Source: Amphiscolops sp. MND2022 (lineage: Eukaryota). From it: DNA of 64,000 nucleotides. The stretch covers positions 27,776,001 through 27,840,000 of the forward strand of contig OZ076416.1 in assembly GCA_964187785.1 (NCBI GenBank), given 5' to 3'. Both the position numbers and the translations under genes were made by a program. The notes beneath the pieces are model-generated. The model saw only the letters and a list, made by a program, of their open reading frames with translations, had not been told where the DNA came from and did not search any database. This document shows positions 18,363 through 53,870 of this stretch, piece by piece; the stretch's first letter is position 1, and each line of letters opens with the position of its first letter.

Positions 18363-18906
18363 CGACGATCTAACGTATGAAGGAAATGGGGAGTGCTATA
18401 AGCCACCCGCAAAGAAGGCAAGAAAATACTGGAACTGATCAGATCACTGACTGATTCATCATCTCATATCAAAAGTCACAAAAGACATCGAACTCAGGAA
18501 GTTTAAGCTTTTGTTCACGAAATTCTTATAATACTAGTAGGGAAGCAAGCGGATTGCTGGCAGAGGGGCTCGAGCCAAGTACAATGGTCTTTCAGCTGCG
18601 AAAACCATCAAAAGATGTAAAATTTTTCTGAAAACAATGAGATCTCGAGGCGCGCCGTACGGCGAGGAAAATTTTTTTTCTTTCACGATTCCACTAAAAA
18701 GGGTGTCACTCGAAAGAGCATGGTAAAAAAGGGGGGGACACCGAAAATCCAGGTTGGGTACGAAAATTTAACAGTGAAAAAAGTTCTCTTGAAAAGGGCG
18801 ATTTTCATGTTTGTTGTGTTTTTGGTAATACGTTAACTGAAAGAAGAGTAAAGAGCGACGTCTAGTGAGTGAAAAGCGATTGCATGACCCCAAGAACGAT
18901 CGGTCA

Positions 18907-30361: not shown

Positions 30362-30630
30362 GACGTGAACGTCCAAAGTCCACGCTATATCCAAGGCTCA
30401 AAAAGCGCAAAGTTTTTAAACCTGTAAAAGGGGGACCCTTCGGGTTTTTTGAAAATCCAGTTTGTTGCAAAATATCAAATATATTGAAGGGGGCCGAATA
30501 AAGACTGTACTGACGAGTACACGTGAACGAGTGAAGTCTGTAAAAAGTGGTACATACACGATGAGGTCTGACAAAAAAAGGAAAAAAACTAATAGTCGGA
30601 CTCTTTTCACTAGAAAAGCGCCGACTAAAA
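30362..30630 (-). mobile_element. HINE-like family A copy inserted in the hAT Zn-finger coding region
   Basis: GACG-TGAA-CGTC stem at the left and GCGCCGACTAAAA at the right. The flanks rejoin as about FHIK(K)HVLSEKH. Confidence 0.65.
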
Positions 30631-31400
30631 CATGTTCTGAGCGAGAAGCACAAGCGTAATTTTGCTTCGAACGCCAGTAGACAACAAAAACTGGCTTTTG
30701 GGGCAGAAAAAGGAAGGAACCTCTTTTATACAGACTTACTACAAGCATTCATCGCAGCAAATATCCCGCTAAAAAAACTTGAGAACGAGGTGTTTTCATC
30801 GTTCCTCGAAGTGTACACCGGGACAAAACTACCAGATGAATCCACTCTACGGAAAAACTACCTGGGCGAGGAAAGTTCCGCTGCTTTACAATCAATTACT
30901 ACAAAACTCAAAGATAAATGTTTCTACGTACAAATTGATGAGTGCACCGACAGCTGCGGCCGTTTTATTATTGCTATTCTAATCGGCAGTCTTGAAGAGG
31001 GTTCAGTTACAGTTCCTTATCTCGTGGAAATTGTGGAATGCCAAGTTACGAACCATTCAACAATTATTCAAGTTATCATGGACATACAGTACAGAGTTTT
31101 TGGCAGCGTTCACCATGAAAAGTTTACCTTATTGTTGAGCGATGGAGCTAGTTATATGATGAAGGCAGGAAAAATTCGAGAAAAATTCCCTAAAATGTTA
31201 CATGTTACCTGCTCAGCACACTGTATTCAACGCCTGACGGAATTCATTAAATCGAAATTTGAACGCCAAGATAAATTTATAAAACGCACTAAAGCGTCTT
31301 TTAACAACACAAGGCGACTACGGCTTTTTAAAGAAAGAACTGGACTAACGAGACCACCTCAACCAGTGGAGTCAAGGTGGGGTACTTGGCAGGGGGCATG

Positions 31401-31724
31401 TTTTTAGTCTTTTATGCTTCCAAAAGTAGAGGGGAGACCAAAGGGTCCCCCCTTTGCGGTTTTTTTCGGCACTATGCGACATTTTTTCAGAAAATTTTTG
31501 AATTCTATCAAATACCCCTTGAATTTTTTGAAGTTTTCAATTTGTAAAAAACGTTTAATAAGCCTAAAGGGTATCTATTTGGGTTTTTCGGCAATATGCG
31601 ACTTTTTTTCACCAAATACTATTTTTGACACAAAAAAACTTCCAAGTTTTTCCAATTGGTGGTCCTTGAATATTTTTGACCTTTTTGGTCATATGAAGCC
31701 GACTTGGGCCGTTCCCGGCTTGTT
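31401..31724 (+). mobile_element. HINE-like family A copy inserted in the hAT transposase
   Basis: TTTTTAGTC at the start and GCCGACTTGGGCCGTTCCCGGCTTGTT at the end. Confidence 0.65.
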
Positions 31725-35238: not shown

Positions 35239-35296
35239 CTGCAACAAACAATACTTTCAATACTTTGTTTATGCGGAAATATGCATTGCCGTCTAA

Positions 35297-35489
35297 TTTT
35301 TAGTCGGCGCTTCATGAAGTGAAACGCGACTATACTAATGGCTTTTCAATCCAACTGACCCATTCTATTTTTTGATGTTTTGCGACAAAAATGTTGAAAA
35401 ATCCCAAAGGGTCCCCTTTTAGCGCGTGAGGGGCCCGCCAATTTGGTCAAACATTTTGGTTTTTCTGGTACTGTAAAAGAATACTTGAC
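35297..35489 (+). mobile_element. 5' part of a HINE-like copy split by the Polinton (3' part at about 47500-47551)
   Basis: TTTTTAGTCGGCGC start. The right flank of the Polinton continues ...GCTATTTTTGAGCCTTAGATATGGCG, as in intact copies. Confidence 0.7.
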
Positions 35490-35714
35490 AGTAGTATACG
35501 TTGGTAGGGGTATTCGCACACTTTCGTTTCTCCCTACAGTTTAACATGGAGTTTTTGCAATTTTCTGCAAAAGGTAACCATATAAGGTAACAATTCTCAG
35601 CTAGGGCCACCTCTAAGTTGTGCGGGAGCGGGTAGAATCATTTAGATTAACAATTTGAACTGTATTCGCAATCTGATGATGTCTTTTTACACTCTTAAAA
35701 CTTATAACTGAACA

Positions 35715-35803
35715 GGCAGTGTAGCTCTAGTGCTTAAACCCGCTGCAGCGGGCTCGATGGTACCGTGATCGAGCCGCACCCTAAGCACTAATCCTGCACT
35801 ACC
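35715..35803. other. Branched (Y/T-shaped) GC-rich hairpin inside the left end of the Polinton
   Basis: Stem TAGTGCTTA/TAAGCACTA encloses the palindrome CCCGCTGCAGCGGG and the hairpin GGCTCGAT/ATCGAGCC. Confidence 0.7.
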
Positions 35804-36108
35804 ATTTTGATGGAAATCAACAATAAAATTGACCCTGAAAATTAAACACGCAGAGGTTAAAATACCAGATTTATTTTGACACTTCGCCACGCTAATCAAT
35901 AAATTTTTCCAGTCAAATCAGTTGTGCGTACCAAAAATATCGTGAGAAAGTTGCAATCAAGCCGGTGATTAATCTTTTCCAATTCAGACGCTAATATGAC
36001 TTTTTGATTTTTTCCCACCAAAAAGATGACATATCACAAGTCGATTGAAAATAAAAACCGAGTCCAGAAGTTGCATTTCATTTCAACTGAAAACTTTGTC
36101 AGTACATC

Positions 36109-38053
36109 ATGACTTCCACTACAAAAGAATTTTCCACTGAACGTATGAGATACCTTCTATACGAGACAAACAAAGTCTTCACACAAAAAACCTGGGACTC
36201 TTCTGATCAAGACGACAGTGTGACAGAACCCATACCCAAAAAAGAATACAATCCATTGAGAAACACAACCCATTTGGTCGAAAGTCTCAAAAAATTCCTC
36301 GAATGGGTTATAGATTACTCCAACTTGGAATTTTGCGTGGCTCTGCATGCGAAGGAAGACGACGCAAACGAAATGGATATTTGCCAGAGTTATGGAAGAC
36401 TGCACTATCACGTGATACTCTATAGTGTGAAATTTCCCAAAACCATGGATAAAATTATCAAAAAGAACTTTACCACTGCCCTCGAGGAAACCATGAACTC
36501 GCAGAACAACTACAGAATTGAAATGTTCAGCACAAAGAGTTCATCTTTTCGAAGAGAATTTTTGAGAAACACAAAAACTTTGGTGACACATGGGCCATCT
36601 ATTCAACAGCACTTGAAGGGATTGAATCATACAAGCAGCCGCAATCACGTTGACTGTATCTGGGACAAATGTCAAAAAACTGGGCGGTATGAAGCAAGCC
36701 GCGACACAATCATCGATCGAACCCAAAAATTCTAGACAACGTTGAAGAGTTGGAAAAATCCGCCAGTCAGTTCAAACATGTGATACCCGATATCGTCAAC
36801 TTCCTCACCCAAAACAGCTATGCAGGGTGGCCACTTCAAAATTTCAAATTTGGGGGCAGATGCAAATCTATCTGAAATGTTACAAAATTAACGGAAATCA
36901 TGGTTAATAAATATCATTATGCCGTGGCATGTTGAAAGTACTTGAAAACAACAGGTTAGAGGAATGATATCTTCGCTCACCGCGCATAGTATTGCAATTA
37001 TCAGTCATAACGTAAGCAATCTGCTCGTAGTTAAGCTTAAACTCAGCAAGTACGGTACAGAAGGCATCAAAAACAGCACTGGAACCGACAAATTCGACAT
37101 CTGATAGCTTCTTTACGGAGTCATTCAAAAACTCATCAACCGAAAATTTTGCTTCCAATTCAATTGTTCTGAGATAAGAATTCTTTCTCAATTCCCCATC
37201 AAAGTGAACGATCCAGAATTCGAGGCGGCATTTCTTATGGTAGCTCGATTCATCCATATGAATACCCACACGGTCACAGGAAGTGATTTTATCGGTGACT
37301 TGGTCTCTTACAAATGGGGCTATCGCTCTCGTTATGATGTATCCCGTTTTCGTTTTCCCACAATTAATCGCAGCAAAGGAGCTATCTGGGAACATCACCT
37401 TGTAAAGTGACCGATTGCGACTAAAGCATTCGCTGGATCTAAAGCTTGCGTCATCCACGATGATCTTCAAGCAATGATAAATAGTTGCACGCAGCACGCC
37501 GGTCTCCTTACTGCAACTCGTATAAAGCGCCGCGGCAATGTTTGGAGTACGGCTCGAGGTTGATGGCATGTTCTTCTTGTGCATCGCCGATTGTTCATGT
37601 TGTTTCAATGCAAATAATCCTCGTGCAATTTTGACCACTGTATTGCAATATTTGCAGCGCACTGAATGGTCAAGTCCCGGAATGCGCAGTCCCCAAGCAA
37701 ACTTCTCGCTTAAGTTGTTCGTAAACTTGCAATCTCCACCCATCACTACCTGAAAACATTAAAAAATTAAGCGATACATTTATTTGGGGGTTAAAATTAT
37801 GCTGGGGGCAATTTGGGGGCATTTGGGGGTGCCCCCAAATTTGGGGGCAAAGTGGCCACCCTGCAGCTATGGATCCTTCACCAACTCCCAACACAGTTCG
37901 GTTTTAAAAGTATCACTCGACCTGACCGACGCTCAATGTTGCTGCCACGACTGCTGCTTTCCCGAAAAACAAACTCCGGAGAGCAGAAACTATCAATTCA
38001 TTGACGAAGGAACTGTCCTGTTTGAACAATCATTTGATGGTATATTCAGCTAG
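36109..38053 (+). pseudogene. HUH-motif (Rep-like) ORF of about 298 aa, broken by a 1-nt frameshift (A5 at 36725-36729) and the hAT insertion
   Basis: CVALHAKED...GRLHYHVILY motif. After removing 36823-37871 the frame runs on to a Cys-rich tail (CCCHDCC) and stops at 38053. Confidence 0.5.
36823..37863 (-). mobile_element. Internally deleted hAT transposon (1,041 bp) nested in the Polinton
   Basis: 14-bp TIR CAGGGTGGCCACTT, 8-bp TSD CAGCTATG (36815-36822 and 37864-37871), TTTGGGGGC subterminal repeats. ORF 36904-37746 has a BED-like finger (CKYC...H....H) and MDES/TDNC catalytic motifs and is 3'-truncated. Confidence 0.92.
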
Positions 38054-38071
38054 ATTTCAGTTGCTAAAAAT

Positions 38072-38506
38072 TTGCTTTCAATCATGTTGTTTCCTGAGTA
38101 TCTTGATATACAACAAGTAATAAAAAAGTTTGATGAACTAGTAATTATTTTCCCACAAAATAAGGTCAGCAAAAATGCTTTTCTCGCAGTGTGTCAGGTT
38201 ATTGACCCAACACGGGACCTGGCAGCAATAAATGTAGAATGTGAGTACGGAGGCTTGATAGGGCCAGGCAACAGTTTCCTACATCCTTTGCTTCAGAAAT
38301 TTAAACTTTTCCGTGTTCACGCGGCCTTTCATGATGCATTTGGTTTCATGAAAGAAAAGTATAATTTGGGATCAGGATATGTTTACACATTGGGTGAGGA
38401 ACCATCATTCAAAAACAGCTGCCTGTTGGGTCATTTCACCGGCTTGTTTCTTTGGATGTATCTAAAACTGACACAATCACAGATTTATTCCGAGTTGCCA
38501 TTTTGA
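38072..38506 (+). CDS. Parvovirus/adintovirus-type phospholipase A2-like protein
   Basis: YGGLIGPGN (Ca-loop-like) followed by HAAFHDAFG (catalytic HD). Confidence 0.7.
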   Translation: MLSIMLFPEYLDIQQVIKKFDELVIIFPQNKVSKNAFLAVCQVIDPTRDLAAINVECEYGGLIGPGNSFLHPLLQKFKLFRVHAAFHDAFGFMKEKYNLGSGYVYTLGEEPSFKNSCLLGHFTGLFLWMYLKLTQSQIYSELPF

Positions 38507-38522
38507 CTAGTAAGCATTCCAA

Positions 38523-38810
38523 ATGTCAGCTGCTAGCTCCAAGCTACCAAACACATCACTGCAGCTTTCATTGAATTCGAAAGTTTTCATACAATATAAT
38601 CATCAGAATCATTTTTGCATTTACCTCGAAAAGATTGATTCTGGTGTCTGTCCGCTAAACAATTACAGGTTGAGACACCTAGTTCCACTCACTTTGGAAG
38701 AACTTCTCCAACTATCGGAAGCATCGAAAATTCTTTGTTCAACCCTAGAATACAACTATAATCTTTCTAAAAAGCGAGAATACCCAGATGCCAAACCATC
38801 TCGCAAATGA
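38523..38810 (+). CDS. Polinton hypothetical protein (95 aa)
   Basis: ATG-initiated, co-oriented and tightly packed between recognisable Polinton genes. Confidence 0.45.
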   Translation: MSAASSKLPNTSLQLSLNSKVFIQYNHQNHFCIYLEKIDSGVCPLNNYRLRHLVPLTLEELLQLSEASKILCSTLEYNYNLSKKREYPDAKPSRK

Positions 38811-39099
38811 AAAAGCTAAGGATCAACCAGACACACCAATATCTGTTACTGGAGGCAGTCTGATTTTTGACAACGACGAAAACGAGAGACCTCCGTGGAA
38901 ACTTCAATGCTGTTGTATTAGAAAAGAATGTGAGCGATCGCTCCTAGTCTTATTACTGCATTATTTTATCGTCTTTTTGGTTGTGGCAGCAAGTATAGGG
39001 TTCTTATTCCTCAAGCAGAGCGAAAACAAGGGCAGCATAGGAGTGGTTGCCATCATATCAGCGTGCTTAGGCTATATAATTCCGTCACCGAGACAATGA
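38788..39099 (+). CDS. Small two-TM protein of the kind found upstream of Polinton ATPases
   Basis: CERSLLVLLLHYFIVFLVV...ISACLGYIIPSP. Its stop overlaps the ATPase ATG (ATGA at 39096-39099). Confidence 0.65.
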   Translation: MPNHLANEKAKDQPDTPISVTGGSLIFDNDENERPPWKLQCCCIRKECERSLLVLLLHYFIVFLVVAASIGFLFLKQSENKGSIGVVAIISACLGYIIPSPRQ

Positions 39100-39791
39100 A
39101 CAAAATAATCAGCACAGATCCCCACTGTTTTCTCATGGTAGTTGGACCCAGTGGCTCGGGAAAAACTTACTTAGTCTCGCAGCTTCTGAAACAGCATCAC
39201 CAAATTTTCAAACCGAACTTCCAACAATTTCTGTACTTTTATAATCATTTTCAACCCATTTATCAAGAACTGCAAGTGTTACTGGGACCAAAAACTTTTC
39301 ATCTTTGTCAAGGTGTTGACTGGTCTCTACTGGACAAGGCATCGGCGTCAAACCAACACACTCTCGTCATTTTCGACGATGTCTATCAAGAAGTAGCTGC
39401 CGCGAAAGAGTTTTTGAACCTCGTGATTTCCGGCCGACATCAGAAACTACATCTGCTGGTCCTGAAGCACAATTTGTACCAGCAGTCAACAAACTCCAAA
39501 ACGATTGATCTGAATGTTACACAATTGTTGTTGCTGAGGAACCCACGAGACACTAATCAAATTGACTACTTGGGACGACAACTTGGTTGCCGAGAACTTT
39601 TACTCAATTCGTATAAAAGAGCAACGCAAGATGAGTTTGGTCATTTGCTCATCGATCTGGATCCCCGGCTGAATGAAAACTTGCGTTTTTCTTCAAACAT
39701 AGTTTCTAAACCAGCCATTTATTACTGTAACACTTCAAACTCGACAGCAATAAACATTGATGATTCCTTCACAACATCTTTATACAATTGA
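39096..39791 (+). CDS. A32/FtsK-like genome packaging ATPase
   Basis: Walker A GPSGSGKT, Walker B VIFDD, and GRHQKLHLLVLKHNLY motif. Confidence 0.92.
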   Translation: MNKIISTDPHCFLMVVGPSGSGKTYLVSQLLKQHHQIFKPNFQQFLYFYNHFQPIYQELQVLLGPKTFHLCQGVDWSLLDKASASNQHTLVIFDDVYQEVAAAKEFLNLVISGRHQKLHLLVLKHNLYQQSTNSKTIDLNVTQLLLLRNPRDTNQIDYLGRQLGCRELLLNSYKRATQDEFGHLLIDLDPRLNENLRFSSNIVSKPAIYYCNTSNSTAINIDDSFTTSLYN

Positions 39792-40080
39792 GTTGTTCTC
39801 ATCTTTCAAACCAATACTAAAAAGACATTTCATCTTACATTGTAGTGACGATATAATAAAACTTTTCTGCAATTGCCTTTTCAACATCAAGGAAGGAGCG
39901 ATAGAGCTCAAAAATGTGAAACCTAATACTCTCAAGAAAAATAAACTGCTCATTCAACAGCTCTGTTCACCTAAGATCAGGTTGGCTGTGAAGAGAACTA
40001 CTGGCGTCCAAGCAAGGACAAAGTCTTTTACGCTTGCTAAAAACTTCAATATTAAGATATCTGAAACTACAGTGCTATGA
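39757..40080 (+). CDS. Conserved small basic Polinton ORF (C-terminal part probably frameshifted)
   Basis: LHCSDDIIKLFCNCLFNIKEGAIEL...LKKNK resembles the C-x-C..N..G ORF seen after the ATPase in Polintons. Confidence 0.5.
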   Translation: MMIPSQHLYTIELFSSFKPILKRHFILHCSDDIIKLFCNCLFNIKEGAIELKNVKPNTLKKNKLLIQQLCSPKIRLAVKRTTGVQARTKSFTLAKNFNIKISETTVL

Positions 40081-40733
40081 GCAAGCCAACAAAGCGGTTT
40101 GTACTTGTGCCAGCTGATGTGTACTTCAACCAAGGAGAGGAGAAGGCCATTAACGGCGGCTTAATTGCTCAACCATCAGTAGCAACATCTGAATCGAAAA
40201 GGGCCAAGTTTTCCGAACAAGACCTGAAAGAAGAACTTATCAAGGAAGAAACACATTGCGAATCACCTTTGGAGGTGACCACAAAAGCGAGTCAACTCGA
40301 TGTTCTAGATCGACTTGCGCCGTCGAATCGTAAAGAAGCAATCGATCAGAATAAATTGTGGAACATAAATAACAAAATACAAACAATCATTAGTAAATTG
40401 ATCGAGCTCGGCTTTAGCAGCAGCAAGTTGGAAAGATCACGAATTATATTACAATCATTTTTCAAAAATTCGCGACTGTCTCTTAACGAATTGCTGGAAA
40501 TACAACTGGACGGCAGTCCAACACAGGTAAACCTCCTAGCATTTCTGAGTGACCTTCAAGTTGCCAACAAAAAACTGGGTGAAGCATCACTGAATGTGCT
40601 GCGTATACTTAAAATCACAACTAAACACATCATAGCAAATGTCAAGGCAAAAGAGGTGGTGTCGTCAGCGGGACAAAACGATTCGACATCGAGTTCACTT
40701 TCTTCTTCGACCTTGTGGGTCGAGCGCTTCTGA
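40077..40733 (+). CDS. Polinton hypothetical protein (218 aa)
   Basis: ATG overlaps the previous stop. Starts KRFVLVP. Lies between the ATPase block and the integrase. Confidence 0.55.
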   Translation: MSKPTKRFVLVPADVYFNQGEEKAINGGLIAQPSVATSESKRAKFSEQDLKEELIKEETHCESPLEVTTKASQLDVLDRLAPSNRKEAIDQNKLWNINNKIQTIISKLIELGFSSSKLERSRIILQSFFKNSRLSLNELLEIQLDGSPTQVNLLAFLSDLQVANKKLGEASLNVLRILKITTKHIIANVKAKEVVSSAGQNDSTSSSLSSSTLWVERF

Positions 40734-41915
40734 TGACGGCCAATTAGCAGCAGAACTCATCAATCAACTCTTGATTCGAGCAGAAATTGAATTAAATCCC
40801 GGACCTCTCAAATGTAATTGCTGTAAAAAGCTTTTGGGCAAAGTACGAAAAAGGCACCAACTGTTTGGTGTCACGTTTGCGGATGGGTACACTTCAAGTG
40901 CAGTGGCTTAAACACACCATTGGATTATCAAAAGACTACCAATTTTCGGTGCCCGTGGTGTGCCACCAATACTAGATTCGCAAACGAAAGTTCAGACCCG
41001 GCACTTTTAACATTGCACAAACTCTACACTTCAACAAGCAGTCACGCCGCTTTCGGCTCGAGCGAGGTTTTGAGGAAGGCAGCAGCAACAAAAGGAATCA
41101 AGAGAAAACAAGTTGACAAATTCCTTTCACAGAGCGAAACGTACACCAAGTTCCGCGCTGGTATACACAAGTTCACCCGGCTTAAAGTGCAATCTTACCG
41201 AATCAATGAAATTTGGTCTGGTGACTTGGCAGATGTGCATCAATTAGCAAAAAACGACGGCAAGAAATTCCTCTTGGTTTTTGTGGATTGTTTGAGCCGA
41301 TTCCTCCGCGTGGAAGCAATTGAAACCAAGTCAGCGACGCAAACAAGGACTGCACTACAGCGTTTGATACGGAAGCAAAAACCAGAAAAGATTTGGGTGG
41401 ACAAAGGAAAAGAATTTAAGGGCGAATTTGCCAAGCTATGTGCAGAGAAAAACATTACAGTATATAGCACCCACAGTGAGATGAAATCATGTTTGGCCGA
41501 GCGCTACATTCGAACTCTCAAGTCAATTTTATTTAAATATTTGCATGAGAACAACACCAGTCGATACATTGATCAACTCCAAAACTTTGTTAACCTCATC
41601 AATTCTCGACCTAACAGGAATACAAAGATTGCTCCGAAAAAAGTGACAAAGAAAGATGTACCGTACCTCGTTTCGTTATCAGCCAATGCCAACCCTGTGA
41701 AAAAACCACGGTATAAGATTGGTGATACAGTAAGGATTCGATTGAAAATCCCCACTTTCAACAAGGGCTATAAAATTCAGTTTACAGAAGAAATATTTGA
41801 AATTGTAGCCAATCCGACACTGAACCCCCCGACGTACACAATAAAAGACAAGGACGGCCAAGTCATCGAAGGAAAATTCTACGAGGAAGAATTAGTTTTA
41901 TTTCGTTACAGTTGA
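40733..41915 (+). CDS. Retroviral-type (rve) Polinton integrase with a probable N-terminal 2A-like peptide and PHD finger
   Basis: WSGDLAD, VDCLSRF, WVDKGKEF and LAERYIRTLK (DDE core), then the GDTVRI...GY...FTEEIF...TY.I.D..G....GKFYEEEL tail. Upstream EIELNPGP and C4HC3-like residues join via one A in the run at 40825-40829. Confidence 0.88.
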
Positions 41916-41944
41916 GTAGGTAGCTAGATGACCTTGTGCCTGCA

Positions 41945-42787
41945 ATGGAACAAACTTTTACAATCAATTTAATTCCCAATGCTTCCATGCAAGTGTTTCC
42001 TGCAAACACTATGGCTTGATTCACAACATTATTACCCCATAGAATTGAACTAGCTGGAGACTGGGAAGTTGCCATTCTAGAGGCATCTTGGCCGGCCAAA
42101 GTTAAAAACATTACAAGCGCCGCATTAACGTTGAGTTGCTTCGACAAAAAGTCAGAGACAAACAAGACCGAAACATAATGGAACGATACCAGACAGCTAT
42201 TATCCAAACGTCGACATTCTGATGACTAAACTGATACAATCAGTGTATCAAAGAAACGACACAAACTTCCCAGTTAGTTGGAAAGTTGATCCAGTCAGCG
42301 GGAAAATTGAAGTTTTTTTCCACAGTCAAGAGTTGGAAGATCAATTTTGGCTCCTGTTCAAGTCAACCGATTTGTCAAACACACTCGGAATCACCGATAC
42401 GATTTGTTGCACAATTCAAAGCCAACTTGAAAAAGGTTACGCCGTGCAAGGCACTTACCCGGTCGATCTACAGGGTGGTCGGCACACAATGTTTTTATAC
42501 TGCGATTTGATTCAAAACGAAATCTTGGGTGACGCTCAAACAGCTCTTTTGAGGGCCATACCGTTGAACCAAAGAGATGCTGTTTCCAATGCAACATGCT
42601 ACAGAAACTTTCACAAATTGCAGTGGAAAAACCTACAAGGTCAAATTTTCAATCAATAACGATAAGACTGTGCGATGAAAGCGGCCAGCTGATGCCTTTC
42701 GTCAGTATTGGACGAACCAATCTCACGCTAGCTTTCCGTCGCCGCAGCGGCCACTCGTCTTCATTCAACTCAAATCAACAATTCTGA
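41945..42787 (+). pseudogene. Minor capsid (penton) protein with nonsense and frameshift lesions
   Basis: MEQTFTINLIPNASMQVFPANTMA*FTTLLPHRIELAGDWEVAILE..., FLYCDLIQNEILGD...LLRAIP, and ITIRLCDESGQLMPF. Confidence 0.8.
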
Positions 42788-42820
42788 ACAGTTGCTAACT
42801 AAAAGACCAGAACACAATCC

Positions 42821-43264
42821 ATGGATGCTTACTATGCTTCGCAGAGGACATTCCACGGACCAGCAAGGCAATTCGGTTCCTGTGCAGGTCTGGGAGCCTT
42901 TCAAGTTCGCGTGGGACGGACTGCCATGCCGCTTTTGAAAAAATACGTCGCCCCAATAGTCAAACAAGTAGGCAAAAATGTGCTGGAAGCCGCTCTACCC
43001 GAAGTGGCCAGTCTCATTTCAGGCAAAAAGAAGACGAAGAGGGCGATCAAGGATGGCGTCAAGCGGGTGATAGCAAAAACTATTGAGCCGAGTGCCGCGG
43101 CGTGCGGCACGGCGGTCGGCGGCGGCGCAGCCAGAAAACGAAAGCATGCTGAGTTGTTGAAAGCTCCATCAACAAAAACAATCATTTCGAACAAAAAGAC
43201 TCCCAAGAGAAGTCGGGCAGACATTTTGACCAAAGTGAGATTTGCCAATTCTTCCAACAGTTGA
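42821..43264 (+). CDS. Basic core-protein-like ORF (adenovirus pVII/pX-like)
   Basis: YYASQ...RQFG..GLG..R.AMPLLK..V...GK pattern, with a Lys/Arg-rich C-terminus. Confidence 0.6.
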   Translation: MDAYYASQRTFHGPARQFGSCAGLGAFQVRVGRTAMPLLKKYVAPIVKQVGKNVLEAALPEVASLISGKKKTKRAIKDGVKRVIAKTIEPSAAACGTAVGGGAARKRKHAELLKAPSTKTIISNKKTPKRSRADILTKVRFANSSNS

Positions 43265-44847
43265 AGGGAATGAGTGCCAGCACAACCAATTCAATACAAT
43301 TTCATAGCCGAGCAAGCGATGTAGCTCAACAAGTAACACACAGTGCACTAGACTTTTTTGAAAAGCCTCCAGTCTTGATCAATTACGAAGGGTCCCACGA
43401 CCAAGAAGTTTTTCCACAAGTGGGGTGTCGAGGACCACAACTGGATATTGTAGTTACCTCCGACAATAGAAACCTGGTTGATTTGAACAAAATAGTCTTG
43501 GACATCGACTGTGCCATCTATAAAGCCGATGGGAAAACGCCTGCCGAAGAAGTTCTTCCTGTATGTTTTGCAAACAACACGCTACATAGTTTGTTCTCTC
43601 ACGCCGAGGTTTATATTGACGGCATATTGGTTTCATCGAGCAACAATACATACCACCACGCAGCATTCATCGAGACGGAAATGACGACCGACCTTGATGC
43701 GAAAGCAACTTGGGCTCGATGTCAAGGCTACGAGTACCAGGCAGACAAAACATCAGAGGAAGAGTTAGCCAAGTGGAAAAATGAAAAATACGAGCAGGCA
43801 AAAATCTCGAAAAACAAATTACGACTGGTTGGAGCGCCCCATATTGACTTTTTCGAATGTGAAAAAATTCTTTTGCCAGGAATAACACTTCACATACGCC
43901 TCCACAGATCAAGCAACGGCTTTGTACTAACATCTCTGGACAGCAGCAGCAGTGATGAAAAATTTGTTGCAATTATTGAAAGGGCATCACTGTTCGTCAC
44001 CAAAATGGTCGTGAAGGACTCTGTGCGAATGTCCATAGAAAAGGCATTGGTAAGTGGTCCTGCCCATTATCCCTACATTGAGACATTAAAAAGTTTCATC
44101 ATTCAAGCAGGACAAAACAGTTTCGTGAAAGAAAATATTTTTGGAACGGAACCAGTCAGACGTCTCACTTTGTGCATGATAACAAACGAACAATTCCGAG
44201 GAACTAGGAACGCTGATGCCTTCCATTGTAAACCGTTTGGCTTGCAGAGACTAGAAATTACTCGTGGAAATGGGGTCCCAGTTCCAGGTAGTCCGCTGGA
44301 CATGAGGAATGGAAAAATGCGAGCCTTTTACAACACAATATGTTCACTTGGTTTTGCTGCGGGTAAAGGAGGAAACGGAATCGCTCGCAAAAATTTTGAC
44401 GTTTTGGTAAAAAAAAGCAAAAATCATTTCGTTTTGGTATTCGATCTGACCTCTAGCAGAGAAGCCTCCAAAAGTCTCACCTTATTTCCTGAACTAACAG
44501 GAGGTAGTCTCACGTTGAAGTTAACTTTTGAGCAACAATTGGAACAAACAATTGAGCTCTTCCTCATTGCGGAAAAATTTAGTCAAATTTTCATTACATC
44601 CGAAAGAACAGTTCTCAAAAACACGGTATTGAAGCTGTATCAAGTCACACTAATGGACACTTGGGCTCTACAAAAACTGGCACTCAAATGTAATCATTTG
44701 ATAGAAACATTTTGGGGAGTTTGGAGTGCAGACAACTTTCCTCTGATGAACGAGGACGACGCATCACCGTCATTTCAAATTGTCAACACTGAAGCTAGCA
44801 ACAAACCCGGAAAGCACTGGGTTCTACTATGCAAAAGAACTAAATAA
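43261..44847 (+). CDS. Major capsid protein (double jelly-roll type), read in frame into the protease N-terminus
   Basis: LDFFEKPP..., NNTLHSLFSHAEVYIDG..VS.SNNTY...FIET motifs typical of Polinton capsid proteins. Confidence 0.85.
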   Translation: MKGMSASTTNSIQFHSRASDVAQQVTHSALDFFEKPPVLINYEGSHDQEVFPQVGCRGPQLDIVVTSDNRNLVDLNKIVLDIDCAIYKADGKTPAEEVLPVCFANNTLHSLFSHAEVYIDGILVSSSNNTYHHAAFIETEMTTDLDAKATWARCQGYEYQADKTSEEELAKWKNEKYEQAKISKNKLRLVGAPHIDFFECEKILLPGITLHIRLHRSSNGFVLTSLDSSSSDEKFVAIIERASLFVTKMVVKDSVRMSIEKALVSGPAHYPYIETLKSFIIQAGQNSFVKENIFGTEPVRRLTLCMITNEQFRGTRNADAFHCKPFGLQRLEITRGNGVPVPGSPLDMRNGKMRAFYNTICSLGFAAGKGGNGIARKNFDVLVKKSKNHFVLVFDLTSSREASKSLTLFPELTGGSLTLKLTFEQQLEQTIELFLIAEKFSQIFITSERTVLKNTVLKLYQVTLMDTWALQKLALKCNHLIETFWGVWSADNFPLMNEDDASPSFQIVNTEASNKPGKHWVLLCKRTK

Positions 44848-45109
44848 GGTATAGGTGCTATCATATTTTGGGATAGCTTGGGAAAAAGGCCGAGAAAATA
44901 CAAGGTATTGTTCGAACGATTGAATGAAATTTATAAAAAAAATTGTTGTATTCAACCATCCTCTTCAGAGCAACTATTCAAATTGCTGTGGTTTGTATTG
45001 TATACTTGCTGCACATTACTTACGATTATCGGAAAATAACAAAGCAGCTGCACAAATGCTCCCAAAGAAGATGGTTGATGAGTGTTCATTAAGTCGTTTT
45101 ATAAATTAA
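44653..45109 (+). pseudogene. Adenain-like cysteine protease
   Basis: IVNTE...PGKHWV (His), FWDSLG (Asp), LQSNYSNCCGLYC (Gln/Cys). TAA at 44845-44847 and a frameshift in the A8 run at 44935-44942. Confidence 0.85.
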
Positions 45110-46197
45110 GAGTTGATGTTAGAGAAGTAGGTTATTCAAATGCATGTCTATCATTCAGTAGCTAAACTTGAAAAGATTCTCAGTTGTGTTAATTATATAA
45201 CAAGAAGAATACTTGAGTTCACCAAAGTTGAACGAAAGGCGAGTTATCAAGGTTCATCGACAAATAAAGACAACTGAGAAGAAAATTTGAAGTCCAACTT
45301 TAATTGGCATTGCATAATTAATTACTTCTAGGCAGACTCGTAAATGACCAGATTCTCAGTTATGTTTATTCGATAGAGAAAAGATCGTTTAGGTTCATTA
45401 TTGAAGTTGAGCTGATGTCAGCTTATCAGGGTTCATTAGCTTATTTGGACAATGTGTGAAACAGTTTTGACATTATCGAAATGAACTCGGAAAAACTTCG
45501 GGCCCTTTGAAAAACAAAGGTGTCGAAAAATTTGAAAAGTGACAAAAGATGAGATAAAAGTCGGCTGGAAAGGAGTATAAAAGGTGCACACTTGGAATAT
45601 ATCTTCATTGAAGTTCCTGTGGAAAAACGCTCAATATTGGTTTTTAAAACTCTGCATCGTTGAAATTTCCAAATCATCAACCATGAACAACTTCTTTTCA
45701 ATATTGATTCATGAATCAAGAGAGGTCACGGTCCGGGAAACACGAAAACCCAGACAAGAGAGCAGCATCGAAATAAAGGTCCCCAAGAAGCGAGTGGACG
45801 AATTTGGCGAAGCTGGCGGGTGATCGGCACCGAGGCTTCCTTCCCTGAGAAGGCCTTCACGAAACTGATGAGAATCAATTGGACAATAATTTTCTTCGGG
45901 ATGCTGGGCAACGGTGAATTGCCTCAGGAGATGCTGGTACCGACCCCCGCCGACGAGGACGCAGGGCTCCGTATGGAATCCCGTTTCACGTCAACAATTT
46001 TCTCTGAAGTCGGTAAGCATGAACATTATAAATAGGATTACTGTTGGTCAAAGAGAGAGGGACTCAGGCAAATTAGTCTTGAATCGAGCTTGAAAGATCA
46101 CTAACATATTCAGTGCAACCCTTTTCTTTGGCGCTTGTGCCTCACAAGACGATGAATTTATCAAGATGCGTGATGACTTAGGTTGTATTGAAGTGAT

Positions 46198-46683
46198 TTG
46201 TTTCAATTCGATAACACTGTTCTCATTTCATGTTTAGGAGAGAAGACAGCATTCAGGGCGTCAGTGAACATATACAACTTGAACATACATACAAAGAAGA
46301 GTGTGTATGTTACAATGAAGGCCTTCCGTTGGGAGCCCGAATGGTCACAATTCAATCGAGTTGGGCAAGTGATTACGCTGCATCATTGTGAGATGATGCG
46401 GCTGATTACGGAATATAACACCTATCTGGATAGAATTGTCGCTCCTTCTGGTAAGCCAACGGAAGAGAGCACTTGCGAGGAGGAAGACCGACCCTTGTCA
46501 CTACTGAAAGCTGGGACGTCAAAGCGCACTGAAAAGACAGGATCTTCCTCCTCACAAGTGCAAAAGAAAATACCAAAAAAAACGGCCCTTGCGGAAGGGA
46601 CTTCAACAACGCCCGCAGTTGATGCCCCGAAGGAGACCACTAGCGAAGAAATCACTATCGAAGATAGTGAGGATGAAAACTAA
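46198..46683 (+). CDS. Polinton hypothetical protein with acidic/low-complexity tail
   Basis: 161-codon open frame in the element orientation. No ATG start is evident. Confidence 0.4.
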   Translation: MFQFDNTVLISCLGEKTAFRASVNIYNLNIHTKKSVYVTMKAFRWEPEWSQFNRVGQVITLHHCEMMRLITEYNTYLDRIVAPSGKPTEESTCEEEDRPLSLLKAGTSKRTEKTGSSSSQVQKKIPKKTALAEGTSTTPAVDAPKETTSEEITIEDSEDEN

Positions 46684-47884
46684 TTGTATAGTTACAAGTG
46701 ATTCGTATTATTTTATTCAGTACCTGATTGTATATTGTTATATTACCTCAAAGTTTTTCTGCTAGTTAGCAAATGAGACATCAAGTTCGAAAAATACATC
46801 AACTATTTCGAGTAAAAACAGTGAAAAAAAAGTCATCATGAGAGCGGGTTTTCAAAGTGACTGCGATCAGAATCGATCCGCGTTTAAAATACATTTCAAA
46901 TTTTCAAATTGATCTAAAGATGAAAATTGAAGTACGGAAATGTGCGAAAGTAGAAATTCATTTTTATTCCAAAATTGATTTGAGCAAAACCCCTTGCTCC
47001 AATGCTTACTAAACGCGCCGTGCCGGCGCGCTGTTCCTTGCGGCCCAATATTACGACTTACATGAATTCCATCGTGGTCTACACCACTAGGCCACAGGCG
47101 CACTGATTTAGAATGAAATTGAAAGACTGTAATTAGCTGCGAGAACAATTAATAAAAGCGATGAAAGCAGTATTAGGAATGAGAAACATCAAATAGAATT
47201 AAATTGAGAATACAGCTATTCGGTGTGGTGGCCGTTCAAACTTCGATGACATTGAATAACTCTACGGTTGAATTGAAACACCATTGCAATTCAATCATTC
47301 CAAAGCACATAGCATTGAATAAAATCAAACATTGGAAAGAATGATTAGCAGTAACACTTACATCGATAGTTCGAGTTTGTATAAATCGAATAAGTTCAAT
47401 GTTAAACAGAAATTTGCGAAAAATGCAGAATTTTGTGGAAAAACAATAGGGAGAAACGAAAGTGTGCGAATACCCCTACCAACGTATACTACTCTTGACA
47501 CTTTGAAATCCTTTTGCTATTTTTGAGCCTTAGATATGGCGTCGACTTGTTACCCATCTGGTAAGAGCTGTCAAATTATTAAAGTTCAAAAACTCCTGAA
47601 ACTACTCAATTGTGGCAAAAAGGAAGAAAGCTTACAAAACGCCAAGGCGTGTTAATTCTTTGCATAAACATTTGACGAAAGTATCAGAAGCGAGCGAAAG
47701 TCTCAGATTTTGATCTGAAGTACAAATGCAATTTTTGTTTCGAAATCGAATGAAAACTGTTTTTTCACCCAGCCTGTCGTACTGTATCTTGAAACACACA
47801 TGTCTCAAGAAAAAATGTCAAGAGCTTCCTTTGTCTTGACTGACTAAAAACTCTATCTTTAAGGATTAAAGCCACCAGCTAGTC

Positions 47885-48460
47885 AAACAAGCCGGGACCG
47901 GCCCAAGTCGGAGCCATATCTAAGGCTCAAAAAAAGCAAAAAGACTTCTAAGTGTCAAAGTATTCTCTTGTACAGCACCCAAAATTTTTTTTTGGAAAAT
48001 GTCTCACAAAGCCGAAAAACAATTGACAGGGGGACCCTTTGGGATTTTTCAACATCCATTCTGGCGCAAAACTCCAAACAAATTGGAGGACCCTTTGAGA
48101 ATTTTTTTCCCGGAAAAAGTCGCAATGCCGAAAAAAACTGAAAAGGGGGACCCTTTGGTCTCGTCTGGTATTGTATGTTACACGGTAAACATATTTGGTT
48201 CAGTTCCCTGGGCCAACATGGGCAATTTAAAATTTTGTAGAACTGTTGGTAGAACTATTCTGGTCACTTCAGGTGTATCAAATAACAAGCCGGGAACGGC
48301 CCAAGTCGGCGCCATATCTAAGGCTCAAAAAGACTCGAAAACGAAAACCACTTTTTCTACAACTGGAGACAACAAAAGCTCTCAAAAAACTAACAAGCCG
48401 GGATCGGCCCAAGTCGGCGCCATATCTAAGGCTCAAAAATAGCAAAAGGACTTCAAAGTG
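47885..48460 (-). mobile_element. HINE-like family A cluster with three 3'-end modules
   Basis: CAAGCCGGGAxCGGCCCAAGTCGG(A/C)GCCATATCTAAGGCTC at about 47887, 48286 and 48394. Confidence 0.65.
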
Positions 48461-48561
48461 TCAAGTACAGTACCCGCATGAGGAAAAAATTGAAACACAG
48501 AGGCGATATATTATTTTAATCGCATGCGTATATATTCAACAGTTCAACTTTGTTCAATAAC

Positions 48562-48632
48562 GTCCCTATGGCACAGTGGTCAACACTTATGCCGTGCAAT
48601 CGGGAGGCTGCAGGTTCGAATCTCTCTGGGGT
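48562..48632 (+). repeat. tRNA-derived (SINE-like) segment, copy 2
   Basis: Near-identical to 4577-4648, including about 170 bp of shared flank. Confidence 0.55.
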
Positions 48633-49826
48633 TTTGGCTTTTTTCTAAAAGGCGCTCATTATGAAGTTGACTATACTGGAAAAAAACTTACTTAGCTGGA
48701 CTGCAATGCACATTGACTTCGTCATGTGCAAAAAATCCCATTTTTTTCGAAGTTTTTTTTCAAAATTTTTTTGGTCTCCGATAAGTCGCATAGTGCCGAA
48801 AAATGTAAAAGAGACCTCAAAAAGCCCAATTAAGTTCTATCTCAAGTGCCAGTAGAAGTAGTGTGGCATTTAGTGTTAGTTCAAGTCAGCTTATAAAGCT
48901 TATAAAATCTGTCAGTTCGTTGGTCTTAAAAAAAGAAGTCACTACTATAGTCTGCGTTTTTCTACGAAAAGCGCCGACTAAAAATTGAGAAAAAAATTTC
49001 CGATTTTTTTTCGATTTTTTTGAAGTTTCCGGTAAGTCGCATAGTACCGAAAAATGTAAAAGGGGGGACTTTGGGATTTTTTGAACATCCATTCTGTGGC
49101 AAAATATCAAAAATTGATGGGAGGAACAATAAGAAAAATTTCGGAAAAAAATCAGTCTCACAGTGCCGAAAAAAGGAGGAAAGTCTCATAGTGTCGAAAA
49201 AAGTGGAGCCTACTGCTTTGGAATGGCTTTTTATCTCATGTTAGAGGCTTTGGATGCGTTGAAAATGAAGTACTAAGTACATATGGTAAAAGTTGGTAAA
49301 TGTGCATTACTGCACAAAAAGTGGACGTTTCGCGTTGAACTGACGAAAAAAAACTAGCCACTGTAAGAGTCGGGATTTTCTTCGAAAACGCCGACTAAAA
49401 AAACACTGACGAAAAGCCATGACTATTGTCGGCTCTTTTCAAGAAAAGCGCCGACAAAAAAATGTTTTGTTGCAACTGAACTACAAGTTTTTGGCTGTTT
49501 GGTCTCATGACCACTGGTTTCTCCGCAACTTTGTAAAACGAGTACCCAAAAATTTTGGCCATTTCAAATTTTCTGCTATTGAAACTGACATAATTCTCAA
49601 CTTTTCCAGAGGTTAGTTCTACGGAATACAACTCACCGAAGTCGGCTCATTGCAACAACAGCGAATTTTCAAAAAAAAAAACATTTTCGCAAACAATGGT
49701 TTTGACACTGCCCACGGATATGGTATCGACTAGCATCATTAAGAGATGAAAAGTTCATGTTTAAAAGACAGTTGGTGTAAAGTTTTGGTTATCAGAACAT
49801 GCGCTGATAATAAATCAGAAACGTAC

Positions 49827-51000: not shown

Positions 51001-52941
51001 ATTCAGAATCATGCTTCTTATTATTTATCTGTTTGTTGGTACAAATGAGTACTTCAAACTCGACAAATGAAAAATGACGAAGAATGAAGATCGACAATTT
51101 TTTCGCGCGTAGAACCAATTTTGTAATCAATTGTTTCCGACCCGTCAATCTCCAGGTGGCAAAAAAGCAGAAATTATCAACAGATATCTCGGATATCAGC
51201 AAAAATTAGGCATTTCTACCATTAAGCAAAACGAAATCGAAGACCCTGAAGAAAAACAATAACCCAATATATTCATAATAGTATTTTTGAGATCTTTGAT
51301 TCTGTTTTGTTTGAGTTCATCATTGAAACAAAACAAAAAAATCCAAAATCATCGAAGTGCAAGCTACAAATACGTTTCATCGAATAAGACAGAAACTGGG
51401 TTACAAAAATGGCATTTCGAGCCATTGCAAATATTTTGCTTTCATGATTTCTTCAAAAACAAAAATTCTTATGCGCGTCATAAGCGTTTTATAAATGTAA
51501 AGCATGATAACCCTGATTCCATAAGAGCAGACAGGGAAGATAAGGTAAGAATGGTAAGAAAACATAGACCAAAAAGGTAGACTAGACACCTACTGATTTT
51601 GCCGCTGTTCGTTGTGATGTTGAGCTGTTGCTAACGCTGCTATCATTTAGAAGCAGCTTTTAGAATTTCCCAGTATGTTCTCTCACTGATGCCACATGAC
51701 AGCAAATATTAAGCACCAACTAAATTGCTGAAAAAGTTTCAGACTAATCAGCAGTTTCATCAAGAGTCTCACGCCCCGCCCCTAGTAATGTCAGAGCGCT
51801 AAAATTGGTGCCCCGACTCAAACAAAGACGTTACTTTTGTTGTAGTCATTTTATAGTCAAACTGAGAGATATAATTTTGAAACCAAGTAAAGTTCTTTAA
51901 ATTTCACACTTTCCTAGCGTTATTGTACAGCTAGCCGGTGAAAGCCCGCTATTGAATAAACGAATTGATTTCTTTGACTTTTATACCTGGCAAATACCTT
52001 GTTTAAGCTTAACAAAGAGAAGTGAACTCTTTTCTATTTTCCGCAACGACCAAATCTTTGAACAGACTTTTTGAAAAACTTCAAATTGACGATGTTAATT
52101 ATGAAATCTTTTAAAATTTTTCGCAAGCTAGACAAGTATAAAAATTCGAAGAGGTAGGTCCTTTATACCAGATAACGTACCCAGCATCGAGTACGAGATA
52201 CTCGGTTACGAATGTACTGCGTATACTATTCTACAAGTAATTATTAGATTACAAAAAAGATGTCACTCAGAAGCACCTTTCTTTTTTGGAATATGCCCCT
52301 GAGGGGAAATTAATGGTCCGATACGAACTGGCGACGGTTCATGAACTCTACTTGTAGGAGCTTTTCAAATTCATCGTAGACTATTTGCTCGGCCTTATGC
52401 CACAACTTTTTCAGAGGCTATGACACAGGAAACGAGCAGCTAGTGTGTGTGGTTCACGGCTTAGATATGTACTAATGCTTGTGGGACACAACTGCGTTTT
52501 TTTAAACAAAAAACAATTTGAGGATTGTTTAAATGATTTTAAATGTTTTCGTATTTATGTTTTTTGTTGTGCTAGAAACTTTTACAATAAGGAAGACCTC
52601 TTTCAAGTGGCCTTTCTCAGAAATCGGGTACTTTGATGTTTCGAAATAAGGAAAGAAGTTTTCGAAAATTGGCAATGTGAATTCAACAAAATTATCTCAC
52701 AAAAGTGTCCCTCAGTATAGTTATAACCAAATACTCTGCTTCAACTTTGAGCGGGGTGGCGACTTGGACAGTTTACGGCTTATTATGTCGTTAACAAATA
52801 CGGAGATTTACACAAAGAAAAGCGTGATTTTCTCAAGATGCTCGCGTTATTTGTTTCTTATTGACAAAAAGAAAAGCGATCAATTATTTACCAAATCAAG
52901 CCTAATTGTTGTGATAAACTTATTAAATAGTTTCAGAGACG

Positions 52942-53811: not shown

Positions 53812-53870
53812 CAATTACGTCGTAAATGTTTAAGAACCGGTTCCTCGAAGAAACATGGAACAGAAACTAA

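Follow-up and report, generated by a model that had tools for sequence, protein, structure and literature searches.

A Polinton-Type Element of Amphiscolops sp. with a Virion Gene Set, No Polymerase Gene in the Analysed Copy and a Tyrosine-Less HUH-Fold Protein in the Polymerase Slot

Introduction

The family-B DNA polymerase that uses a protein primer (pPolB) is one of the two genes behind the name Polinton, and in Mavericks it shares a module with the packaging ATPase (PMC8097293, section 7; here and below, papers are cited for the accessible parts of their text). The animal lineages described as having lost it take a helicase or a primase-polymerase. Here, we analysed a Maverick/Polinton-type element at positions 35490-47493 of a 64,000-nucleotide stretch of Amphiscolops sp. 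MND2022 (assembly GCA_964187785.1, contig OZ076416.1, positions 27,776,001 to 27,840,000, forward strand), which is called the window and to whose first letter all coordinates refer. With animal Mavericks (Polintoviricetes) the element shares (AGT)2//(ACT)2 ends, a 6-bp target-site duplication (TSD), an RVE integrase and the gene order. Its genes are co-oriented like those of the Xenopus tropicalis Maverick, and its 47-bp terminal inverted repeats (TIRs) lie at the low end of the 46-1,447 bp reported for vertebrate Mavericks (PMC8097293). However, intact vertebrate Mavericks measure 12.7-24.6 kb (PMC8097293), whereas this element measures 10.96 kb, has no pPolB, and adds upstream of its ATPase gene an open reading frame (ORF) for an HUH-fold protein (ORF1), a phospholipase A2 (PLA2)-like ORF and small ORFs.

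Alpha-class adintoviruses resemble the element in its candidate PLA2-like gene, in the set of hexon, putative penton, putative adenain and FtsK-type ATPase genes, and in the rve integrase (PMC8502044; 10.1101/2024.03.25.586562); the PLA2X gene marks their virion modules (PMC8502044, section 3.2). They are, however, defined by an OTU-bearing PolB and a C-terminal integrase chromodomain; neither was found in the element, and its integrase carries an N-terminal PHD-like finger instead. Group 2 Maverick-Polintons, MELD viruses and Tlr1 are like the element in having lost pPolB while keeping the integrase, and a phospholipase is common among them. In group 2, fusions with a helicase or PrimPol often take the place of pPolB (10.64898/2026.06.19.733378, section 5), MELD viruses with Alpha-like virion genes carry superfamily-1 (SF1) helicases (PMC8502044, section 3.4), and Tlr1 keeps the integrase and has a helicase (PMC11161782). 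Whereas group 2 and MELD elements carry SF1 or superfamily-3 (SF3) helicases, often fused to a polymerase or PrimPol, the HUH-fold protein of the element stands alone, with no helicase or primase beside it. Also described are meldviruses that lack PolB and integrase, and an adomavirus that encodes RepE1 and whose virion genes are adintovirus-like (10.1101/2024.03.25.586562, sections 14 and 16). Adomavirus tegillarca5526 is circular, has no integrase and encodes a Rep with an SF3 helicase, whereas the element is linear, TIR-bounded, integrating and helicase-free.

Bidnaviruses are also chimeras of parvovirus and Polinton, but they lost the parvovirus endonuclease and gained the Polinton pPolB (PMC4061559); the element, with its parvovirus-like endonuclease fold, is their mirror image. 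Mriyaviruses and the Polinton-like viruses (PLVs) of the Zora/VC218 type combine a double-jelly-roll capsid with an HUH gene and sometimes an RVE integrase (10.64898/2026.06.19.733378). Their capsid module is like that of nucleocytoplasmic large DNA viruses, they come from protists or aquatic samples, and their HUH protein is read as an active rolling-circle initiator, whereas the element is of the animal Maverick type. No pPolB-less, HUH-bearing animal Polinton was found in the literature searched, although figures and preprint supplements could hold cases, in particular figure 2 and the supplements of 10.64898/2026.06.19.733378 (HUH frequencies) and the supplementary maps of 10.1101/2024.03.25.586562. 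Likewise, no HUH-bearing animal Polinton devoid of a replicase appears in the accessible text of PMC10748475, PMC11131425, PMC11296320, PMC4028283, PMC5803895 and 10.1101/045088.

Results

A Bounded Element with No Room for pPolB

The ends of the element and the insert nested in it are as follows.

35484..35489, no strand: left TSD, CTTGAC (from sequence and the empty-site paralogue)
35490..35536, + strand: left TIR, 47 bp, starting with (AGT)2 (from sequence)
47447..47493, - strand: right TIR, 47 bp (from sequence)
47494..47499, no strand: right TSD, CTTGAC (from sequence)
36823..37863, - strand: nested hAT-like element, 1,041 bp, with 12-bp TIRs and an 8-bp TSD, CAGCTATG (from sequence)

The element spans 12,004 bp, or 10,955 bp once the nested insert and one copy of the insert TSD are subtracted. 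The insert, presumably a hAT element by its TIR and TSD pattern, has a shortened ORF of 279 amino acids (aa) at 36904-37743 with no Pfam match. The TIRs of the Polinton-type element are identical at 47/47 bases, with weak similarity out to about 80 bp, and end in 5'-AGTAGT...ACTACT-3'; (AGT)2 is the commonest Maverick end motif (PMC8097293, section 7). The hexamer CTTGAC stands on either side, a match expected by chance at about 2e-4. The element interrupts a host repeat, and a further copy of this repeat at 47895-48010 (- strand), 400 bp downstream, joins the left-flank to the right-flank sequence with a single, one-base-longer target hexamer. Since this empty-site paralogue shows the uninterrupted site with one target word, the TSD is a true insertion scar, although by itself it does not prove that the element inserted already without pPolB. 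The repeat family that supplies the paralogue is abundant in the window: it was seen at 35295-35489, 47494-47550, 47886-49112 and about ten other sites (e.g., 4067-4399, 27012-27883 and 57219-57378).

All element genes lie on the + strand, and from ORF1 to the protease gene the spacing between assigned genes is only -32 to +33 bp. There are only three larger gaps: 572 bp between the left TIR and ORF1, 1,115 bp between the protease and terminal genes, and 763 bp between the terminal gene and the right TIR. The 1,115-bp gap, the largest unassigned one, is partly occupied by broken small ORFs. Pfam matched no polymerase family to any of the ORF pieces (24/24 scanned) or to any of the six-frame fragments of at least 30 aa from the unassigned zones (55/55; 57 fragments minus 2 covered by the ORF-piece scan, while 86 more inside assigned genes were covered through their main frames only). 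PHROGs gave no polymerase match for 23 proteins, and eight patterns of family-B polymerase motifs had no match in the six frames of the element; these scans are blind to short stretches left over from either end of pPolB, N-terminal (terminal-protein/OTU) or C-terminal. Thus, neither a pPolB nor the OTU-bearing PolB of the Alpha class was found in this copy. Of the eight conserved Maverick gene positions, seven are filled in order, and the missing one is pPolB.

These results bear out the initial annotation, which had described intact 47-bp TIRs and a 6-bp TSD, about 10.95 kb of co-oriented ORFs without the nested hAT, and neither a gap of pPolB size nor PolB remnants. It had also called the Polinton complete, which is true of both ends, but the copy is not intact. 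About ten lesions (stops, frameshifts and insertions) affect ORF1, the integrase, minor capsid, capsid and protease genes, and the zone 45683-46035.

In one alternative, the family is an ordinary one that encodes pPolB: a clean internal deletion removed this gene from the present copy or from its immediate template, and ORF1, comparable to densovirus NS2, is an accessory gene that occurs alongside pPolB in the sisters. In its favour, pPolB is kept in most animal Mavericks (PMC11131425, PMC8097293), and 96% of vertebrate copies are degraded (PMC8097293), as this one is. The segment 45250-45670 also scored as non-coding, although by a weak codon model in which held-out genes reached only 0-5 and on which we do not rely. 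Against a clean loss, there is no remnant of a gene of more than 3 kb and no truncated neighbour, the genes across the usual pPolB slot overlap tightly, and the same junctions recur in distant copies. We consider this alternative, the strongest of the four, possible but unlikely; ORF1 and its relatives, described below, bear on it from both sides.

ORF1 Has a Predicted HUH Fold but No Conserved Catalytic Tyrosine

The slot of pPolB is occupied by ORF1, and a hairpin precedes it.

36109..38053, + strand: ORF1, HUH fold followed by a helical region and a C-terminal His/Cys3 zinc-like motif (from models and profiles)
35715..35803, no strand: branched hairpin, candidate origin or promoter element (z -2.6, -2.4 and -3.0 vs shuffles)

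Intact sisters encode an ORF1 of 297 aa (17 hits among 44 candidates); in this copy, a frameshift near 36727 and the nested insert disrupt the gene. Sequence searches of Pfam, PHROGs and PDB gave it no name, and tblastn of its homologues against plasmids found nothing. In the model (predicted local distance difference test, pLDDT, 63 overall and above 80 in much of 50-170) it has the Rep topology, with a central sheet and the HxH on the central strand. All four Foldseek matches in the viral library at E<=1e-3 were parvovirus non-structural proteins (three of the NS1 type and one ambidensovirus NS2); an adomavirus helicase-like protein followed below that level (E 6e-3). The longest structural alignments against PDB were those with the nuclease domains of adeno-associated virus (AAV) Rep and B19 NS1, covering 128-133 residues at Z 6.0-7.1 (AAV2 origin-binding domain: Z 7.1, root-mean-square deviation (rmsd) 4.9, 128 aligned); RepB, circovirus Rep and SV40 T antigen (Z 6.1) were also matched. 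By hhalign, H80, H99 and H101 of ORF1 aligned to H39, H55 and H57 of five RepB-family (pMV158) proteins with a probability of 49-77%; the profile score of 34.9 compares with 10.8+-1.9 for shuffled profiles and was reached by 0/60 column shuffles. The putative metal-binding histidines are conserved among representatives (H80 in 10/10, H99 in 11/11, H101 in 10/11). Several lines, each modest alone, thus agree on a predicted HUH fold for ORF1. A reverse-gyrase match (E 0.008) was dropped because its fold differs and it lacks any motif logic.

In the motif-III helix (143-156), no column has a tyrosine in three or more of the 12 representatives; position 151 is Phe in nine of them, and the invariant Y100 of the RepB family has no counterpart in ORF1. 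The distance from the HUH motif to the helix, about 52 residues, is like the 51 residues between HuH and YuxK in densovirus NS1 (PMC12297876). Between the metal-site histidines lies a cysteine that is invariant (37/37), C92 being conserved together with H80, H99 and H101. This pattern suggests that the metal site is a saturated His3Cys (His-Cys-His-His) zinc site and the C-terminal His/Cys3 motif a second one. A profile search of the whole representative library retrieved 52 ORF1 homologues, down to about 20% identity, and since none exceeds 325 aa, no helicase is fused to ORF1 (one record of 416 aa is a read-through into PLA2). Elsewhere in the element no helicase was found either; the sole P-loop is that of the A32-like ATPase, and nothing corresponds to an SF3 helicase. 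Given no conserved tyrosine and no helicase, a non-cutting role is favoured: ORF1 is most plausibly a DNA-binding protein that does not belong to the active HUH initiators.

That ORF1 is nevertheless an active nickase with a displaced tyrosine, starting rolling-hairpin or rolling-circle replication from the hairpin at 35715-35803, would fit its intact His triad aligned with RepB, its long structural alignments with the AAV Rep and B19 NS1 nuclease domains, and a branched hairpin close to the left end. It is highly improbable, as fewer than three of 12 representatives have a tyrosine in any column of 143-156, where densovirus NS1 has YuxK (PMC12297876), the invariant cysteine could occupy the metal site, there is no helicase, and the hairpin is internal rather than terminal. 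The hairpin sits 226 bp inside the left end, and among 530 other windows across the element, on a grid not exactly on the hairpin, seven reach z<=-2.5. It is present and sub-terminal but unexceptional, and it does not count as evidence for rolling-hairpin replication. A second GC-rich foldable patch at 46980-47110 (z -2.1), about 390 bp inside the right end, roughly mirrors it.

Polyomavirus T antigen, papillomavirus E1 and adomavirus Reps each have a counterpart domain that binds the origin and is nuclease-dead. By analogy, host polymerases could copy the element without a helper if a nuclease-dead ORF1 bound the sub-terminal hairpin and recruited the host replisome. An HUH fold without the catalytic tyrosine, fold matches that include SV40 T antigen and the adomavirus helicase-like protein, and the persistence of ORF1 across capsid subfamilies (see below) all speak for this, and adomaviruses combine such Reps with adintovirus-like virion genes (10.1101/2024.03.25.586562, section 14). 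However, polyoma-, papilloma- and adomaviruses all have an SF3 helicase, which is missing here; a linear TIR-bounded genome without pPolB has, as is established, an end-replication problem; and the hairpin is not exceptional. We regard replication by host polymerases alone as improbable.

For the deletion of pPolB from an ordinary family, the same protein counts in favour twice: without a catalytic tyrosine it would be a poor replacement, and ambidensovirus NS2 is among its top fold matches. Some insect Mavericks are reported to carry a densovirus 'NS-2'-like gene, which would favour the accessory-gene alternative. The accessible text of PMC5803895, PMC8502044, PMC4061559 and 10.1101/045088 did not confirm such a gene.

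Virion Genes Stand in Maverick Order

Downstream of ORF1 the element contains the following genes; PM, PZ and PW are labels by position only, and L001 is a 3.8-kb contig described below.

38084..38506, + strand: PLA2-like ORF, 140 aa, intact (GxxIGPGN...HD motif by eye; 42 cluster members)
38523..38810, + strand: ORF of 95 aa, unassigned (no Pfam match)
38788..39099, + strand: ORF of 103 aa with two hydrophobic segments (27 cluster members)
39096..39791, + strand: A32-like packaging ATPase, 231 aa, intact (Pfam Pox_A32; 41 cluster members)
39760..40080, + strand: ORF of 106 aa in the PM position (by position only; singleton cluster)
40077..40733, + strand: ORF of 218 aa in the PZ position, intact (by position; 25 members)
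40639..41915, + strand: RVE (DDE) integrase with an N-terminal PHD-like finger (Pfam rve E 2e-12, PHD E 0.09)
41945..42787, + strand: putative minor capsid protein in the PX position, 281 aa in sisters (position, size, homologue in L001)
42821..43264, + strand: basic ORF of 147 aa in the PW (core protein) position (by position only)
43270..44632, + strand: major capsid protein, double jelly roll, 448 aa in sisters (sister model; 56 members)
44653..45109, + strand: candidate adenain-like cysteine protease (His and Gln/Cys motifs by eye; capsid-protease adjacency in the read-through protein P0192)
45140..46035, + strand: unassigned zone with short ORFs at 45140-45277, 45683-45823 and 45820-46035
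46225..46683, + strand: terminal conserved gene, unassigned, 122-163 aa (31 members; in two subfamilies)

The order ATPase-(PM)-(PZ)-integrase-minor capsid-(PW)-capsid-protease is the Maverick order given in section 7 of PMC8097293; ORF1, the PLA2-like ORF and two small ORFs lie upstream of the ATPase gene. Sequence searches of the major capsid protein against PDB found nothing, and a fold search decided its identity. The model of the intact sister P0147 (pLDDT 82) matched the PBCV-1 capsid at Z 26.4 (rmsd 3.0, 349 aligned) and that of mavirus at Z 20.6, and its top fold match in the viral library was a Cotesia bracovirus protein, so that a double-jelly-roll capsid belongs to the element by its sister's model. 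In this copy the gene has an 8-codon internal insertion near 44385-44440 and no stop, and its frame continues into the protease. The ATPase matched Pox_A32 with E 9.9e-7 and 28.9 bits against a cut-off of 22.8. The putative minor capsid gene, which a stop at 42017 and two frameshifts (near 42150 and near 42630) interrupt, has the position and size of the single-jelly-roll protein and a homologue in L001, and no Pfam match. The protease gene, with a stop at 44845 and a frameshift near 44930, matched ElaD-SseL-like_C below the cut-off (E 0.005). The PLA2-like ORF has its motif read by eye and no Pfam match, the PZ-position ORF is weakly similar to the ORF preceding the integrase in L001, and the tail of the 106-aa ORF is probably out of frame in this copy.

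The D, D and E residues of the integrase are present, with a frameshift near 40830-40860. As in L001, whose integrase is 48% identical, the gene's overlap with the ORF upstream of it is 95 nt. Its frame ends at 41915, and no Chromo match was found at E<=0.5, in contrast to the Alpha class. At its start (40711-40960, + strand), a PHD-like finger follows an NPGP motif, which we take to be 2A-like; the L001 integrase has no finger. A module of 2A-like motif and PHD-like finger is known from invertebrate LINE proteins. The finger may have replaced the chromodomain, one chromatin reader taking the place of another.

The zone 45140-46035 is possibly one broken ORF of about 110 aa, or upstream exons of the terminal gene. 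Conservation sets in abruptly near 46225, and one GTAAG resembling a splice donor lies at 46013 (45683-46683, + strand); both suggest that splicing may join ORF pieces farther upstream to the terminal gene; Maverick genes are reported to be intronless, and a spliced terminal gene would be unusual. Exact look-ups of four small ORFs of 44924-46035 and one integrase fragment found 0/5, and Rfam had 0 matches. A PC4-like role in single-stranded DNA binding, considered by eye for the terminal gene and the 95-aa ORF, found no support (Atlas <0.9, PDB 0, Pfam 0); a profile match between the two was discarded as circular, the 95-aa ORF having been a row of the alignment.

The Family Is Young and Multi-Copy, and ORF1 Is Old in Its Lineage

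The genes have 25-56 member sequences each, all from ENA, per 90%-identity cluster (ORF1 41, PLA2 42, ATPase 41, minor capsid 35, capsid 56 and terminal gene 31). Among the 15 listed members of each cluster, mean identity is 95-98%, and the modal length is shared by 13 for ORF1, 13 for PLA2, 9 for the ATPase, 10 for the capsid and 11 for the terminal gene. As most listed members are full-length and this similar, the expansion of the family is recent. A search with the capsid found 156 matches; among the 120 listed, the only named organism was the acoel Convolutriloba macropyga, whose F54H12.2-like protein has 49% capsid identity and falls inside the same supported clade of a tree that has no named adintovirus or PLV outgroup. 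At least ten other capsid clusters of 20-60 members appeared in that search. As Mavericks make up 4.5% of one published acoel genome (PMC6451197), many Maverick families are to be expected.

Natural read-through proteins of close and distant copies show ORF1 followed directly by PLA2 (P0010, P0097, P0101, P0287), core protein by capsid (P0205, P0236) and capsid by protease (P0192), with no gene between. When ORF1 and capsid records were paired by the size in bp of their source records, a handle that is not sequence and covers 15 listed members per cluster, each ORF1 subfamily paired with the matching capsid subfamily only (A 8/17, B 6/21, C 2/15, D 1/9; no A-B cross pairs). In the most distant pair, P0144 (ORF1, 21% identity) and P0197 (capsid, 47% identity), the common handle is 8,341 bp, compared with a 7.5-kb span here; it would leave no room for pPolB between ORF1 and capsid, if the layout is as here. 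This shared handle also speaks against a clean loss of pPolB. Clearly, ORF1 is old in the lineage and tracks the capsid gene across four subfamilies. The pairing does not show that pPolB is absent from those elements, as it could lie past the protease or before ORF1.

Retention of these genes also bears on a fourth alternative, in which the element has no extrachromosomal replication and moves by RVE integrase cut-and-paste with host gap repair, the virion genes being passengers. From established knowledge of RVE-type DNA transposons, integrase, TIRs and a 6-bp TSD suffice in principle, and no replication enzyme was found. However, most listed sisters have full-length capsid, ATPase, PLA2 and ORF1 genes, and these stay conserved across subfamilies whose capsids are as little as 47% identical. 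Since virion genes and ORF1 are kept full-length across subfamilies, selection would act on a virion stage that needs amplified genomes, and we find cut-and-paste alone barely credible.

Full-length ORF1 homologues P0005, P0120, P0125 and P0288 lie on very short records (1,134-2,790 bp), several per cluster. These could be transcript assemblies, which would mean expression. L001 (1-3819), a contig in a metagenome-assembled genome of a bacterium (Rubrivirga sp.), is part of a Polinton whose genes run, as in the element, PZ-like, integrase, minor capsid, capsid, and is probably eukaryotic-virus contamination of the bin. It was the one locus among seven candidates in a scan of bacterial and archaeal genomes for capsid relatives with flanks and, at 3.8 kb, is too short to show pPolB.

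Other Features of the Window

Outside the element, the window holds a Gypsy-type long terminal repeat retroelement at 13293-25764 (- strand); it has gag, a pol that weakly matches dUTPase, an ORF resembling a macro domain, and a pair of long env-like ORFs (13293-15461) with no Pfam match. A LINE at 52927-56734 (+ strand) has an L1-type RNA-binding ORF1 and an endonuclease/reverse transcriptase ORF2. A DUF659 (hAT-type) transposase fragment lies at 30565-31407 (+ strand), and a host-gene-like open frame of 720 codons with no Pfam match at 60993-63155 (- strand).

Discussion

The element combines Polinton-type integration (TIRs, 6-bp TSD and RVE integrase) with a full virion set in Maverick order, consisting of a double-jelly-roll capsid, a putative minor capsid, an A32 ATPase, a candidate protease and a candidate PLA2-like protein. 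This copy has no polymerase, primase or helicase, and a tyrosine-less HUH-fold ORF1 stands in the pPolB slot. By the strict definition, which asks for pPolB, it is no Polinton, but it is built and integrates like one. The copy itself is dead, while its family is young and multi-copy.

The best explanation, which we hold to be an even call, is a polymerase-less Polinton as a family trait: an element that integrates by itself and borrows DNA synthesis, most likely from the pPolB of a helper. Summed over this explanation and those by host polymerases, an active nickase or cut-and-paste, it is rather probable that the family has no pPolB. The element would be excised or released, and its DNA would be copied by a polymerase not its own, most likely a pPolB that an autonomous Polinton of the same genome supplies and that primes at the retained AGTAGT ends, or otherwise host polymerases. 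Its own ATPase would package the DNA into its own capsid, and its own integrase would re-insert it. ORF1 would most likely act as a nuclease-dead DNA-binding protein in origin or end recognition or in transcription control, its former metal site having been taken over by a fourth ligand (His-Cys-His-His) as a structural zinc site. Short terminal repeats are a priming signature of protein-primed replicons. A helper pPolB is favoured because of this signature and because a linear genome has no other obvious way of copying its ends.

Several observations weigh against a borrowed polymerase as a family trait or against the role given to ORF1. The absence of pPolB is established for this copy only, no helper pPolB lies within the window, and the gaps of 572 bp, about 570 bp (within 45110-45680) and 763 bp could hide a clean deletion junction. 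The AGTAGT ends may serve the integrase alone. The ORF1 model is middling at its overall pLDDT of 63; its top PDB fold match is the unrelated ferredoxin-like TiaS (Z 7.6), none reaches Z 8, and Foldseek had 0 PDB hits at E<=1e-3. Atlas assigns ORF1 to Rep_OBD (0.92, a family on 37% of members) with a recognition value of 1740, which is in the weak range. A tyrosine occurs at the helix slot in 1/39 sequences and just before the helix in 4/12 representatives, and the motif-III register is ambiguous in hhalign. Finally, P0197 falls outside the 38-sequence clade containing the acoel capsid, on a long branch whose position is unsure, and the ORF1-capsid pairing has the limits of its handle.

The initial annotation had offered two readings of the missing pPolB. 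Its helper-dependent, capsid-encoding derivative agrees with what we found, as the element encodes capsids, lacks pPolB and fits this reading. Of the second, a replacement by an HUH and hairpin module, part has survived: the HUH fold is real, ORF1 stands in the pPolB slot, and it is old in the lineage. Without a conserved motif-III tyrosine or a helicase, and with a hairpin that is sub-terminal and unexceptional, a self-sufficient rolling-hairpin replicon is unlikely. A broader proposal, which we put forward only tentatively and think rather doubtful, is that an old invertebrate (acoel-type) polintovirus clade swapped pPolB for a parvovirus-derived, nuclease-dead Rep origin-binding protein. 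Equally tentative is the corresponding picture of an integrating, capsid-forming linear DNA virus without polymerase, primase or helicase, a linear equivalent of the adomaviruses that still multiplies to dozens of copies in each subfamily.

If the preferred explanation of a polymerase-less family is true, a Polinton can subsist as the satellite of another Polinton or by using host polymerases, and Polinton replication becomes testable by comparing polymerase-positive and polymerase-negative families within one genome. Screens that require pPolB would miss such elements, and gene flow between Polintons and parvoviruses would gain, in the HUH-fold protein, a case on the Polinton side. If pPolB was instead lost cleanly from an ordinary family, the HUH-fold genes would still form a new family of accessory genes in the Polintons of invertebrates.

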